In this document: positions 19,646-59,149 of the stretch, piece after piece
Layout of the letters: each line of letters opens with the position of its first letter
How positions within the stretch are numbered: position 1 is the first letter of the stretch
Source: Escherichia phage vB-Eco-KMB38
Reading direction: 5' to 3' (one strand)
Sequence record: OR525701.1
Length of the DNA: 64,000 nucleotides
Position numbers and translations under genes: made by a program
Notes under the pieces: model-generated
Seen by the model: the letters and a program-made list of their open reading frames with translations, nothing else
Told to the model about the DNA's origin: nothing
Databases searched by the model: none

Positions 19646-19675
19646 ATAGTATCACACATCCATGTGTTTGTAAAC
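19646..19675 (-). promoter_or_regulatory. early promoter (GTTTAC ... TACTAT) overlapping the alt stop
   Basis: rc GTTTACAaac...N18...TACTAT then CATCCTATCAACAAC leader. Confidence 0.55.
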
Positions 19676-25251: not shown

Positions 25252-25446
25252 TTATCCTCGCTTTAAAGATTTGATTACAGACAGTTCACCACCCATGCGA
25301 ACGTCTTCAGTTCCATCGACCCATAGGACGGTGTAGGCTTCTTTAATAGTAGAATTACCTAATTTAAAAGCAGGTAAAACCTTTGAAATCATACCAGGAA
25401 TACCTATACCTTTTAACTGAACGGTTTGTGATAAGAATAGTTGCAT
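25252..25446 (-). CDS. hypothetical protein 64 aa
   Basis: ATG start; 1-nt spacing to neighbours. Confidence 0.5.
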   Translation of the reverse strand: MQLFLSQTVQLKGIGIPGMISKVLPAFKLGNSTIKEAYTVLWVDGTEDVRMGGELSVIKSLKRG

Positions 25447-25766
25447 TAGAACCTCATCTGAAAGCCGTGCGATTTAACATTACCGCCATAAATGTCAGAG
25501 GTATTGACTTCACGTGCGGCGCTAGGGTCGATGTTAATATCATGGCTGAGCTTAGTGATTGCTAAGGTATCACGACCGTTAACAGTACGGAATTCTACCG
25601 GGCACACGACATCAGCATAAGCCTTAATGGATTCACGAGTAGGTTGTTTGTCGACAGGAACGTCTTTACCCGCTTTAGAGAAAACAACTTCACAGAAATT
25701 TTTACGAGTATCAAAATAAGTGGTCATAAACATAATATTTTCCTCAAAGGAGGCCGAAGCCTCCAT
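25446..25766 (-). CDS. hypothetical protein 106 aa (alternative start at 25733 after GAGGAAAA gives 95 aa)
   Basis: ORF in track; GGAGGC-CGAA-GCCTCC hairpin 25749-25764 lies at its 5' end. Confidence 0.5.
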   Translation of the reverse strand: MEASASFEENIMFMTTYFDTRKNFCEVVFSKAGKDVPVDKQPTRESIKAYADVVCPVEFRTVNGRDTLAITKLSHDINIDPSAAREVNTSDIYGGNVKSHGFQMRF

Positions 25767-25774
25767 TTTTAAGA

Positions 25775-26140
25775 TTAGATATCAAATTCGTTAAGAACTA
25801 CATCAAAGATTGCTTCGAGATGTTCAGGTTTAGCTCGGTTACTCAGGATATGACGAATCCAAGTTTTAACCAGAAGTTTACGATTAACACCATTCCAGCA
25901 AGGATGAGTACCTAAATCACGCTGACGGAAATCATCATCTAATGCAATTTTAAAATTTGAACCTTCCATCGTGATTGAAACCGTGATACCATTTTCAAAT
26001 CGCATATAAACGTAATTAGGAGTCATGCACTGTTCGATTTCACAAACTGTACCGTTTTCGTGTTTCCATAAGCAAATAACTTCAGAAGAACCAGCAATAC
26101 CGTTAGAAACATATTTGCGTTCGAAGTTGATGTAGTTCAT
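25775..26140 (-). CDS. hypothetical protein 121 aa, paralog of the adjacent 122-aa ORF
   Basis: Shared CMTP motif and similar length with ORF 26215-26583; own promoter cassette. Confidence 0.6.
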   Translation of the reverse strand: MNYINFERKYVSNGIAGSSEVICLWKHENGTVCEIEQCMTPNYVYMRFENGITVSITMEGSNFKIALDDDFRQRDLGTHPCWNGVNRKLLVKTWIRHILSNRAKPEHLEAIFDVVLNEFDI

Positions 26141-26168
26141 TTTATTCTCCAGATGTTTAAGTTGTTTA

Positions 26169-26210
26169 TTGGTACAGGTCTATAATAACATAACCTGTAC
26201 CAAAGTAAAC
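26169..26210 (-). promoter_or_regulatory. early promoter with stem-loop (PeSL-like cassette)
   Basis: -35 GTTTAC (rc of 26205-26210), -10 TATTAT; 10-bp perfect inverted repeat TTGGTACAGG / CCTGTACCAA brackets the -10. Confidence 0.55.
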
Positions 26211-26214
26211 TGTT

Positions 26215-26583
26215 TTATGCAACTTTAATCCAATTGTCTAAATTTAAAACACCTTTGGCTTTCATTTTTTCGATCAGGTTATCTGCTGTAATGCGTCCAT
26301 TTTGATACCATGTAACATCTTCAGAGTAACCAGTTTCTTCGTCAACATATGTTTCTGAACGAATTTTACCGGTAATAATAGTTTTTAATTCGTATGTGTC
26401 ACCTGTGAAAAAGTTTGCTAACACAATTTTCCAAGAGAAATCATCAGAAGGACCTTCAGGGGTCATACAACTTACGATCTCAAATTGCTCTTTGTATAAC
26501 ATCCACTGGAATTCTTTAATTTCGATAGCTTTATAACCGTCGTGGTCTTTACATTTGATGTATGAGTTCAGATTGATTTTCAT
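26215..26583 (-). CDS. hypothetical protein 122 aa, paralog of ORF 25775-26140
   Basis: ATG start with GGAG RBS; own early promoter upstream. Confidence 0.6.
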   Translation of the reverse strand: MKINLNSYIKCKDHDGYKAIEIKEFQWMLYKEQFEIVSCMTPEGPSDDFSWKIVLANFFTGDTYELKTIITGKIRSETYVDEETGYSEDVTWYQNGRITADNLIEKMKAKGVLNLDNWIKVA

Positions 26584-26625
26584 TTTGTTCTCCAGGTTGT
26601 TTTATTGATTAGGTGGTACAAGTCT

Positions 26626-26654
26626 ATAGTAACACATCCTACAGGAGAGTAAAC
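26626..26654 (-). promoter_or_regulatory. early promoter GTTTAC-N17-TACTAT
   Basis: rc GTTTACtctcctgtaggatgtgtTACTAT upstream of ORF 26215-26583. Confidence 0.55.
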
Positions 26655-26690
26655 ATCTTTTTAAACTTTTTCTGCCCTAAACGCACAAAA

Positions 26691-26708
26691 GGGAGACCGA
26701 AGTCTCCC
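26691..26708 (-). terminator. intrinsic terminator
   Basis: GGGAGAC-CGAA-GTCTCCC; rc followed by UUUU. Confidence 0.75.
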
Positions 26709-26713
26709 TAAAA

Positions 26714-26893
26714 TTATGCAACAACCTTTCCAAAACGAGAAGCATCATCTCGAAGAACTGCACGTGCTCTGCGCATGATCTTCTCAACGGTTTGATTAAT
26801 ACGAGAGTTCGACCCACGCTTGTATCCAGCGCGTTTAGAGGTACCATCAACTTTCTTTTCAACTGCTTTCTTTGCTTTAGCTTGTTTTGCCAT
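26714..26893 (-). CDS. small basic protein 59 aa (MAKQAKAKKAVEKK...), not in the ORF track
   Basis: ATG with AAAGAG RBS, ends 1 nt before the terminator hairpin; Lys/Arg-rich. Confidence 0.45.
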   Translation of the reverse strand: MAKQAKAKKAVEKKVDGTSKRAGYKRGSNSRINQTVEKIMRRARAVLRDDASRFGKVVA

Positions 26894-27212
26894 TATAAAT
26901 TCTCTTTAAATGAAAATGCAGGACTTATTGACATTGCCTGCGCAAGCCCTCAAGGGGAACATAGGTTTTGAATATTTACCGACAGGATAACCATAAACCC
27001 GTCATCATACTTATAACTCTTATCTGTTGCACACCGTTAGCTTAAAGGTTCCGGGTTCGATTTCTCGAGGATAAGATATATACTGATGGATATATAGGCC
27101 TTGAGGCGTACTCCCGATCGGCCATCACCTCGGGGTAGCATGCACTTGCCGCTATAAGAATAACATTCAAGAGGTACACCGTAAAAATTGCCGGGGCGAT
27201 ACTTCAAAAACA

Positions 27213-30281: not shown

Positions 30282-30311
30282 ATAGTATCACAACTCCACC
30301 ATGTTGTAAAC
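30282..30311 (-). promoter_or_regulatory. early promoter GTTTAC ... TACTAT
   Basis: rc GTTTACaacatggtggagttgtgaTACTAT then CTCTACCAACAC leader. Confidence 0.55.
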
Positions 30312-32399: not shown

Positions 32400-32435
32400 A
32401 GGAGCATTATACTCTGCTCCTGAGAGTTTGTAAAC
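32400..32435 (-). promoter_or_regulatory. early promoter with stem-loop (PeSL-like), family A
   Basis: 7-bp inverted repeat AGGAGCA/TGCTCCT around loop TTATACTC carrying the -10; -35 GTTTAC; near-identical to the cassette at 61421-61456. Confidence 0.55.
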
Positions 32436-33811: not shown

Positions 33812-33841
33812 ATAGTAACACCTTCCTTGGTGTTTGTAAAC
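33812..33841 (-). promoter_or_regulatory. early promoter GTTTAC ... TACTAT upstream of alc
   Basis: rc TTTACAaacaccaaggaaggtgtTACTAT then TATCAACAACACGAGGAG leader. Confidence 0.55.
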
Positions 33842-34977: not shown

Positions 34978-35023
34978 TCAGTTAGTTTTTTTAAATTGTA
35001 CCACAATCCTTGTGGTGTGTAAA

Positions 35024-35434
35024 CTACTTTTTCTTATGTTGGATATTCCAAGGCGGGTTGAACTTTTTGATAAAAAGTGGTTCTTCAAGGTCCATTGTTG
35101 CGATGGTCATTGAACCAAGTTCGTTGGTGACTGAAAGATCAAAACATTGGCGGGCCCAGAATTCAACCTTTTTGCCTTGCATTAAGGCATCCAAAATCAT
35201 AAGTGATTTTCTTGAATCTGAAGTCTGGTCTTTTCGATTTATGGCTGTTCGATAATAGTTAATGCGTTTCTTTAAATTCTTGGTTTTACCAATATACACA
35301 AGTTCGTCATCTATAGCAATAGCGTATATGACATTTTTCTTATTAGGGACATCAACTGTTTTAATTGTTGCATCTTCTAATAGCTCCAATTCTGTATATT
35401 TAATAAAGGAATATTCGGCGGCGATATCTTTCAT
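35024..35434 (-). CDS. denA: endonuclease II
   Basis: 136 aa as T4 EndoII; GIY-YIG-like motif VYIGKTKNLKKRINYY. Confidence 0.9.
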   Translation of the reverse strand: MKDIAAEYSFIKYTELELLEDATIKTVDVPNKKNVIYAIAIDDELVYIGKTKNLKKRINYYRTAINRKDQTSDSRKSLMILDALMQGKKVEFWARQCFDLSVTNELGSMTIATMDLEEPLFIKKFNPPWNIQHKKK

Positions 35435-41378: not shown

Positions 41379-41621
41379 TCAAACAGACTTTTTCACAATT
41401 TTCCAATCAGCTTTAAACGATTCAACATCAGAGTGGTGAATCCAGAATCCTGCACTTTCACCATCTTCATAGAGTGGACATCCATCGCATTCATCTTCCC
41501 AACCCATATCGCGTAAAAGATGTTCAGCTTTTTCAACAAGTTCAGCGTCTTTACCGACGATGTTGAAGTACCATTTACCTCTAACTTCAGAATCTTTGAT
41601 GCTCTGACGTTGCAATCTCAT
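41379..41621 (-). CDS. hypothetical protein (frd.2-like), 80 aa from ATG 41621
   Basis: Track start 41636 is a GTG; the ATG at 41621 follows GAAGGAG RBS. Confidence 0.5.
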   Translation of the reverse strand: MRLQRQSIKDSEVRGKWYFNIVGKDAELVEKAEHLLRDMGWEDECDGCPLYEDGESAGFWIHHSDVESFKADWKIVKKSV

Positions 41622-41645
41622 TTTATTCTCCTTCACTTTTATTTG

Positions 41646-42098: not shown

Positions 42099-42127
42099 AT
42101 ACTAACACATCTATGGAAGAAGTAAAC
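42099..42127 (-). promoter_or_regulatory. early promoter GTTTAC-N17-TAGTAT
   Basis: rc GTTTACttcttccatagatgtgtTAGTAT then AGACCTATCAACAAC leader. Confidence 0.55.
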
Positions 42128-58129: not shown

Positions 58130-58762
58130 TCACAGTACGTTAGTTACAAGGGTAATGATTTCTTTGGACACATTAGGGAAGTCAATGTAAGTATATTTAC
58201 CACCGATCTTAATCTTAACATCATTTTCAAGAGAAGTAAACAGCTTTGATTCAGTTTCTGACATGTTGTATGCAAAGATTCTAAGAGCGCCATCTCGTCG
58301 AATTTCAATTTGGCGAATGCCTAGAACTCGTTTAGCGAATCGAACTTCTAAGTTACTACGGTTTTCACCAATTTCTTTAACTTCAACTTTATCTTTAATA
58401 TTTTCAAAAACAAAGTTTGCTAATTCATGCATTTCAGGAGTAACTCCACGTGCTTTTCTAGTGTTACGTTTCTGAAGAAGTTCTGGAGCATTTTCTTGGG
58501 CAAAGAGGTCTGCAGCTTTTTGGATAATATCCATTGCTTCGCCTGTTGCTACAAGTCCGTCACCGGATTTTTCGACTAAACCTTTCTTAATCAATACACC
58601 AATGTTAGAGTTAACAACTGATGCGTTGTATTCTGCTTCCAGAGCTTCACGGACATTGGCAGCAGTGGTGAAGTTGTTCTTAATGATATAAACCATTATT
58701 GCAGCAGTTTTTTCATTCAGAGCGTTTTCAGAAGCTTTGATGATGTAAGTAACTTTAGACAT
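58130..58762 (-). CDS. motA: middle transcription activator MotA
   Basis: 210 aa (T4 MotA 211 aa); N-terminus MSKVTYIIKAS... and NSNIGVLIKKGLVEKSGDGL segment. Confidence 0.9.
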   Translation of the reverse strand: MSKVTYIIKASENALNEKTAAIMVYIIKNNFTTAANVREALEAEYNASVVNSNIGVLIKKGLVEKSGDGLVATGEAMDIIQKAADLFAQENAPELLQKRNTRKARGVTPEMHELANFVFENIKDKVEVKEIGENRSNLEVRFAKRVLGIRQIEIRRDGALRIFAYNMSETESKLFTSLENDVKIKIGGKYTYIDFPNVSKEIITLVTNVL

Positions 58763-58799: not shown

Positions 58800-58828
58800 A
58801 TAATATCATGTTTGAAGCAAAAGTAAAC
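58800..58828 (-). promoter_or_regulatory. early promoter GTTTAC-N17-TATTAT upstream of motA
   Basis: rc GTTTACttttgcttcaaacatgaTATTAT then AGACCTATCAAAAC leader; part of a duplicated cassette. Confidence 0.55.
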
Positions 58829-58865
58829 TTTATTTTGGGCTCTTTTTCAAAAGCCCTGGTAAAAT

Positions 58866-59081
58866 TTACAAACTCATTTCTTTAATAAGGCTAATAAGTT
58901 TTGCCTTTTTAGAACGAAGCTTTTCTAAATGATGACCATTTGAACCGCGAACCACTAAAGAATTGATTTCAACTTCTAAGAAATTTAATTCTTCAACAAG
59001 TGCTTTACGGAGAGCATTCATACCAGGTTTGACTTTACCGAAACGAGTAGTTGTGTTTTGGGTTAATTTCATTTTAGACAT
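58866..59081 (-). CDS. hypothetical protein 71 aa sharing promoter/leader with motA
   Basis: Starts MSKM..., same leader and RBS as motA (MSKV...). Confidence 0.55.
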   Translation of the reverse strand: MSKMKLTQNTTTRFGKVKPGMNALRKALVEELNFLEVEINSLVVRGSNGHHLEKLRSKKAKLISLIKEMSL

Positions 59082-59120
59082 TTTATTTCTCCAATTTGGT
59101 TGTTTTGTTTTGATAGGTCT

Positions 59121-59149
59121 ATAATATCATGTTTGAAGCACATGTAAAC
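59121..59149 (-). promoter_or_regulatory. early promoter GTTTAC-N17-TATTAT (duplicate of the motA promoter)
   Basis: Near-identical to 58800-58828. Confidence 0.55.

Follow-up and report, generated by a model that had tools for sequence, protein, structure and literature searches.

The stretch of 64,000 nucleotides analyzed here, referred to as the window, belongs to Escherichia phage vB-Eco-KMB38 (OR525701.1). At positions 25775 to 26583 it carries two neighboring open reading frames (ORFs) of 121 and 122 amino acids, which lie on the minus strand like all genes at this locus. Over 25400-27000, the sequence shows 100% identity to that of Escherichia phage PTK, and 753 phage records match this region; the window is that of a Tequatrovirus. 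The gene order gp31 (Cpn10) - rIII - 30.9 - 30.8 - 30.7 - 30.6 ... 30.3 - 30.2 agrees with the T4 reference annotation, and the ORF pair corresponds to the T4 genes 30.7 and 30.8, which are already catalogued (NP_049821, NP_049822). The locus very probably consists of two unrelated immediate-early ORFan cassettes, of which only the regulatory block is repeated, as a member of the promoter-early stem-loop (PeSL) type family. The genes and their control elements are the following:

26215-26583, minus strand: gene 30.8, 122 amino acids, Pfam PF06019, phrog_1507
25775-26140, minus strand: gene 30.7, 121 amino acids, Pfam PF06919, phrog_1582
26626-26654, minus strand: early promoter of 30.8, with the -35 GTTTAC at 26654-26649, a 17-nt spacer, the -10 TACTAT at 26631-26626 and TGT before the -10
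26169-26210, minus strand: early promoter of 30.7 in a stem-loop (PeSL-type), with the -35 GTTTAC at 26210-26205 and the -10 TATTAT at 26187-26182 in the loop
26581-26593, minus strand: Shine-Dalgarno sequence and RegB/S1 target of 30.8, GGAGAACAAAA, abutting the ATG and fitting GGAGRAYARAA
26138-26150, minus strand: Shine-Dalgarno sequence and RegB/S1 target of 30.7, GGAGAATAAAA, abutting the ATG, an exact optimal 11-nt site

The gene assignment was verified with Pfam at gathering cut-offs of 27 bits (PF06919) and 25 bits (PF06019), with full-model coverage required. gp30.7 matches PF06919 (Phage_T4_Gp30_7) with 172.9 bits (E = 2.3e-51, residues 1-120 on model positions 1-118 of 118) and gp30.8 matches PF06019 (Phage_30_8) with 152.4 bits (E = 7e-45, residues 2-121 on model positions 3-123 of 124). 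The corresponding PHROG matches are phrog_1582 (5e-65) and phrog_1507 (1.6e-48), both function-unknown families. An earlier note on this DNA had proposed two small genes, each with its own early promoter, in the variable region between rIII and the ligase gene, and both the ORFs and this description could be supported. Its statement that no domain is recognisable is wrong, since each protein scores far above the cut-off of its own Pfam family, even if these families are of unknown function.

Upstream of the two genes, blocks of about 75 nt (26136-26210 and 26579-26654) form direct repeats that are 72-78% identical and 443-444 bp apart. Each contains GTTTAC, a 17-nt spacer and TGn-TAYTAT, followed by a short leader and CTGGAGAA(T/C)AAAATG. 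As early promoters, those sites were counted that have a GTTTAC -35, a spacer of 17-18 nt and a TAnnAT -10 with TGn before an ORF of the early strand, and both sites belong to this class; the promoter that had been proposed before each ORF is present at 26182-26210 (30.7) and at 26626-26654 (30.8). In total, GTTTAC-N17-TAYTAT occurs 12 times in the window, always on the minus strand, compared to 0.14 matches expected by chance. The promoter block of 30.8 is 78% identical to the 30.7 cassette and looks like a degraded 'half' cassette.

The lower end of each block carries a putative target of the endoribonuclease RegB with ribosomal protein S1, for which the consensus GGAGRAYARAA was described by Durand et al. 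2006 (PMC1702504). The site of 30.7 is the optimal GGAGAAUAAAA, and the fold predicted for the 30.7 leader leaves it unpaired. The window has three copies of this consensus directly before an ATG, compared to 0.04 expected, and 30.7 and 30.8 account for two of them. The third perfect consensus next to a start codon, GGAGAATAAAATG (41619-41631, minus strand), precedes another ORF, and the early promoter at 42127 lies about 470 nt upstream of it. In T4, 30.7 is regarded as an early transcript and serves as a standard RegB substrate, which is cut at the Shine-Dalgarno GGAG (Juskauskas et al. 2022, PMC9409239, citing Truncaite et al. 2006).

The repeat is not restricted to the gene pair. Blocks before motA and an adjacent ORF, at 58828 and 59149, share 72-74% identity with the 30.7 block as well. 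For this reason, the repeat is regarded as a dispersed regulatory cassette and not as the remnant of a duplicated gene. The two promoter-leader blocks of that second region (58800-59149, minus strand), located before motA (58130-58762) and a 71-amino acid ORF (58866-59081), share 83% identity and have the common sequence GTTTAC[AT]T[GT]TGCTTCAAACATGATATTATAGACCTATCAAAACAAA.

Comparison with related phages points to the blocks as sites of exchange. Between the window and T4, identity is 33-60% over 26729-26213, which comprises the terminator, the 30.8 promoter and 30.8 itself, then 88% at 26212-26173 and about 72-97% through 30.7. This jump at 26212 places the right-hand breakpoint of a 30.8 allele swap at the -35 of the 30.7 promoter. 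A deletion is seen in Mosigvirus G2285 (vB_EcoM_G2285, MK327933), which has the 30.9 terminator and the 30.8-type promoter block as in the window, apart from one extra A in the A-run before the -35. Its block matches the window down to ...AATAAAACAA and continues with CTGGAGAATAAAATG and the coding sequence of 30.7, and 30.8 is gone. The junction is located inside the shared ...AACAA-CTGGAGAA... repeat and joins the 30.8-type block to the start codon of 30.7, so that G2285 has lost 30.8 precisely, by recombination between the two repeats. The G2285 locus (L005, 1370-1730) carries a second deletion, by which the rest of 30.7, 30.6 and 30.5 were removed, and 30.7 is cut off after residue 39 and fused out of frame to downstream sequence.

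Gene order was read on 27 related loci, apart from T4 itself, in which 30.8 and 30.7 are adjacent with a 68-nt gap. The two genes are adjacent in 14 loci (gap of 71-83 nt), about 590-630 nt apart with one extra ORF in five, and about 1100-1130 nt apart with two extra ORFs in another five; 30.8 is absent from the remaining three. One or two extra ORFs are therefore found between 30.8 and 30.7 in 10 of the 27 loci. Neither the inserted ORFs of 156-176 amino acids in Winklervirus and Marfavirus loci nor the 162-amino acid ORF that replaces 30.8 in Gelderlandvirus STML-198 have a match in Pfam (L002 440-1442, L003 422-1438, L004 942-1430). In all likelihood, the blocks serve as homologous recombination points for gene swap, deletion and insertion among T4-like phages.

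The 30.7 block differs from that of 30.8 by an inverted repeat, which had been noted as 10 bp long and is in fact a perfect repeat of 11 bp with arms at 26169-26179 and 26193-26203 (-20.7 kcal/mol, z = -3.8). In the mRNA sense it reads UUGGUACAGGU, a loop containing the -10, and ACCUGUACCAA. The 5' arm (26203-26193) is located in the promoter spacer, and transcription is expected to start within the 3' arm (26179-26169). A stem is found at the same position of the 30.7 promoter in other phages (5' arm / 3' arm):

Winklervirus CHI14: GGTGAGGGTCT / AGACTCTCACC
Marfavirus F48: TTGGTGTAGGAGTA / TACTCTTACACCAA
Loci L026-L028: GCTGATTGAGTGT / ACACTCAATCAGC

The stem is thus retained in four genera with four different sequences. 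Pairs were counted for three stem classes in one register, and the fourth class was handled apart. Of the cells, 90.6% are paired, compared to 34-43% in slid controls, and 5 of 14 pairs are changed on both sides. The covariation score of 0.288 (0.185 in shuffles) was reached by none of 500 shuffles. These values are suggestive of a selected structure kept by compensatory change, which points to a function at the RNA level. Eight wobble cells were found, and all of them are G.U in the mRNA sense; on the other strand they would give A.C mismatches. This favors a structure of the sense RNA over a DNA operator or cruciform. Because this expected start is about 7 nt downstream of the -10 and thus within the 3' arm, only RNA that reads through from upstream can form the hairpin. 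The stem-loop may act as an insulator of the cassette downstream of it, by attenuation, by stopping 3' exonucleases or by blocking the ribosome site. In Gelderlandvirus-type loci, the spacer pairs with ATACAACGGAG, the Shine-Dalgarno sequence of 30.7. Through this pairing, the read-through RNA would be silenced, with the proximal transcript still open to translation. No Rfam model matched near any gathering score. Short inverted repeats in the spacer between -35 and -10 of several other early promoters were also seen by eye at 19646-19675, 30282-30311, 32406-32435, 33812-33841 and 34995-35024 on the minus strand (e.g., ACACAT..ATGTGT and CCACAA..TTGTGG), which is the other common stem position of PeSLs.

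The earlier note had interpreted the two ORFs as tandem paralogs that share a CMTP-centred block and similar C-termini. A tandem duplication of one promoter-plus-gene unit, with proteins that have since diverged past easy recognition, would account for the same orientation, the lengths of 121 and 122 amino acids, the equal spacing of the regulatory blocks and the fact that each block is the closest match of the other in the window. It would also account for the EIxxCMTP, which is found at the same residue position of both proteins and at a beta-hairpin turn of both structure models, and for the N-terminal beta meander followed by a C-terminal helix in each model. The elements of the two AlphaFold2 (AF2) models are not arranged in the same order, with strands and then two helices in gp30.7 and strands, a helix and two strands in gp30.8. 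The CMTP-centred block is a single match of eight residues, EIEQCMTP and EIVSCMTP, and it is all that BLASTP aligned (E = 0.037 for a single comparison). In 2,000 shuffles, the local alignment reached z = 1.39 (p = 0.10) and the global alignment z = 0.33, and no alignment was obtained at the C-termini. The pairwise alignment and profile comparison that the note had proposed as a check thus revealed no similarity beyond chance, with hhalign probabilities of 0.14% and, with a more diverse 30.7 alignment (25 sequences, effective number 3.4), of 0.10%.

Searches on a larger scale gave the same result. The hidden Markov model (HMM) of each family scores the other at noise level (E at least 0.39, set of 80 sequences), and tblastn against 50,697 phage records placed gp30.7 at 994 places in 994 records and gp30.8 at 1034 places in 1034 records without any cross-match. 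A search with the 30.7-family profile among 1.84 billion proteins returned no 30.8 member, and when BFVD was searched for similar folds with the model of gp30.8, relatives of 30.8 were the only matches. The CMTP itself is not kept in the 30.7 family, where its C is Y in most members and where distant members have YWEDN, GIEN and others in its place, with indels, so that the block is a variable loop in this family. In the 30.8 family, CMTPEG is almost invariant, yet it is missing from the T4 allele. In both Pfam and PHROG, each protein falls into a family of its own, the regulatory block is likewise 72-74% identical to blocks before unrelated genes, other ORFs separate 30.8 and 30.7 in several genera, and each gene can occur without the other. 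Paralogy was therefore rejected on the basis of BLASTP, the shuffle tests, both hhalign runs, the HMM cross-searches, the tblastn place counts and the BFVD search, none of which supports the duplication, and we consider it very improbable. The equal length and equal spacing are explained by two unrelated ORFs that each follow a similar regulatory cassette, and not by duplication of a gene.

The similarity of the blocks could also be purely convergent, forced by the early-promoter consensus and the RegB/S1 site, with no role in shuffling and with incidental breakpoints. The conserved pieces are indeed known functional elements (-35, TGn -10, GGAGRAYARAA), and all early promoters of the window have in common an extended consensus that reaches as far as the leader and the Shine-Dalgarno sequence. 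Both blocks, however, have TGTACCA after the -10, where most others have TATCAAC, the G2285 junction falls within the repeat, and the breakpoint between T4 and the window falls at the -35 of the 30.7 promoter. In addition, excision from PeSL to PeSL as mini-circles was shown experimentally for RB49 and phi1 (PMC2839356), and pure convergence is unlikely. For the palindrome, a double-stranded DNA operator of a dimeric repressor or a DNA cruciform was considered instead of an RNA hairpin. The perfect 11-bp symmetry and the overlap with spacer, -10 and start site, which is the classic operator position, fit an operator. The stem sequence, however, is wholly different in the four genera with pairing kept, as selection at the level of structure would give, the eight wobbles would be A.C mismatches on the other strand, and the shift of the Gelderlandvirus-type 3' arm onto the Shine-Dalgarno sequence makes sense for RNA only, so that an operator is very unlikely.

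Several points weigh against two unrelated genes behind repeated PeSL-type cassettes as the full account. The 30.8 block has no stem-loop in this phage, and it folds no better than shuffles (z = +1.46). The similarity of the blocks is partly forced by function, through the promoter consensus and the RegB site, and 'mobile cassette' may be too strong a term for plain homologous recombination at sequences under constraint. The number of independent lineages behind the covariation of the stem is only three or four. In no lineage is the stem followed by a U-tract, for which reason a canonical intrinsic terminator was tried for the 30.7 promoter stem and rejected. Searches of Pfam, PHROGs, NCBIfam, PADLOC, PDB sequences and PDB folds revealed no relative of known function for either protein, and the transcription starts, RegB cuts and protein roles given for this phage are predictions.

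Taken together, each of the two cassettes consists of a T4-type sigma-70 early promoter, a short leader, a GGAG within GGAGRAYARAA before the ATG, and an ORF for a protein of about 14 kDa. The host RNA polymerase would transcribe 30.7 and 30.8 right after infection, and RegB, aided by ribosomal protein S1, would then cut within the Shine-Dalgarno sequence of both mRNAs, so that each protein would be made in a short pulse only. The blocks of about 75 nt, as members of a dispersed PeSL family, very probably serve at the same time in homologous recombination between T4-like phages, and the stem-loop of the 30.7 promoter may form in read-through RNA and insulate the cassette downstream of it. The locus can be seen as a clean natural example of PeSL action, with an allele swap that ends at a promoter, a precise deletion from repeat to repeat, and insertions in other genera.

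Both proteins are soluble and mildly acidic, with predicted isoelectric points of 5.8 (gp30.7) and 4.9 (gp30.8). gp30.7 is 93% identical to its T4 counterpart. The genes differ at 46 nucleotides, of which 33 are at third codon positions, with eight amino-acid changes, a distribution that indicates purifying selection. Within the family, H27 and H79 are invariant and the motif RDLxxHP is nearly so. The AF2 model of gp30.7 is a seven-strand beta meander followed by two C-terminal helices (predicted local distance difference test (pLDDT) of 80, good in only one of five models). That of gp30.8 is confident (pLDDT 93.6) and beta-rich, with eight strands, one C-terminal helix and two short strands. 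Between the gp30.8 of the window and the T4 allele, which is 12 residues shorter, identity is only about 38-39%, and the protein of the window is nearer to the versions of Klebsiella and Edwardsiella phages (63-75%). Deeply diverged alleles of gp30.8 (about 38% identity) occur within one genus beside a neighbor, gp30.7, that is 93% identical. In the tblastn search, identity was at least 90% in 706 of the 994 gp30.7 records and in 118 of the 1034 gp30.8 records, with 632 of the latter below 60% and the common T4-type allele at about 38%. In the Tequatrovirus Escherichia phage teqsoen (L006, MN895436, 1401-1720), the T4-type 30.8 is disrupted, with residues of about 39-123 left in frame, and the record annotates a 30-amino acid ORF in its place.

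Profile searches of the PDB gave nothing below E = 0.07. In the search of 1.84 billion representatives, the 30.7-family profile had 27 matches at E of 0.001 or lower. Of these, 25 are convincing, and all are small proteins of 41-134 amino acids, mostly about 120, without a linked domain; the two marginal matches (E about 7e-4) have 202 and 1390 amino acids. gp30.7 and gp30.8 are restricted to T4-like phages. This region of T4 was reportedly the subject of a study by Truncaite and colleagues in 2006. The literature covered, which did not extend to Truncaite et al. 2006 and Miller et al. 2003, names no function for either protein. Timing, location and, for gp30.8, allelic diversity make a role in takeover or counter-defence plausible, and the binding of a host factor in one of these contexts would be the most likely role of both proteins. 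In a toxicity screen of 45 early proteins of Mosigvirus AV110, Gp94, Gp135, Gp204, Gp208, Gp214 and Gp263 were growth inhibitors, for which a location in the rIII-30 region is not established (bioRxiv 10.64898/2026.09.14.751387). A more far-reaching proposal, doubtful as a whole, would be that gp30.8 is an arms-race protein of takeover or counter-defence with a fold unseen in solved structures, whose deeply diverged alleles are exchanged via the flanking promoter cassettes, and that the stem-loop at the -10 of 30.7 is a dedicated RNA insulator or switch that chooses which transcripts of the downstream gene are used. With a confident fold that has no solved relative and its striking polymorphism, gp30.8 is a reasonable candidate for a host-interaction screen.

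The gene pair is flanked by two further hairpins:

26685-26708, minus strand: intrinsic terminator after 30.9, GGGAGAC-UUCG-GUCUCCC followed by UUUUGU, upstream boundary of the 30.8 cassette
25749-25764, minus strand: hairpin with a UUCG tetraloop between 30.7 and 30.6, GGAGGC-UUCG-GCCUCC, downstream boundary of the gene pair

The terminator folds with -19.1 kcal/mol (z = -3.3) and the hairpin between 30.7 and 30.6 with -14.8 kcal/mol (z = -3.2); the latter was detected by the terminator scan on the plus strand, too. T4 has a different stem at both positions, at the first of them GGACTCC-TTCG-GGAGTCC. The program-listed ORF of 30.6 begins at an ATG within the second hairpin (window 25733-25766). 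The start equivalent to that of T4 is the ATG at 25733, which is preceded by GAGGAAAATATT and gives a protein of 95 amino acids as in T4.

Compared with T4, the locus has the same order rIII - 30.9 - 30.8 - 30.7 - 30.6 with full-length Pfam matches of both proteins, and differs in the diverged and longer 30.8. For T4, the genes, the early promoters and the RegB site of 30.7 have already been described, and the architecture agrees with the PeSL model as published (Arbiol et al. 2010, PMC2839356; Comeau et al. 2014, PMC4122927). These two papers give the T4/PST consensus TTTACW-N17-TAYWAT and describe stem-loops over the -10 as a common class as well as degraded 'half' elements; the 30.7 and 30.8 cassettes were not found by name in their texts. 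As in a PeSL, the 30.7 block combines an AT-rich upstream stretch, the promoter of this consensus, a stem-loop over the -10, a Shine-Dalgarno sequence and a start codon, and the 30.8 block has the promoter and Shine-Dalgarno parts only. The location in a hyperplastic region before ORFs of unknown function and the link with replacements, deletions and insertions are common to both as well. For the PeSLs of RB49 and phi1, terminator activity was shown for G/C-tract stems, which the 30.7 stem, without a U-run, does not resemble. With T4 early mRNAs under RegB/S1 control, such as motA, 30.7 and 30.8 share a Shine-Dalgarno GGAG followed by the A-rich consensus; cleavage is established for T4 30.7, and the two sites of the window are predicted from sequence. 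In the T4 genes e, soc, 49 and I-TevI, a hairpin masks the ribosome site, and it does so only in the longer RNA that arises by read-through. The 30.7 genes of the window and T4 differ from this type, as their 3' arm ends 18 nt short of GGAG and gives no direct sequestration, whereas the Gelderlandvirus-type spacer likewise pairs with the Shine-Dalgarno sequence of 30.7, and a free site would arise only from the proximal promoter.

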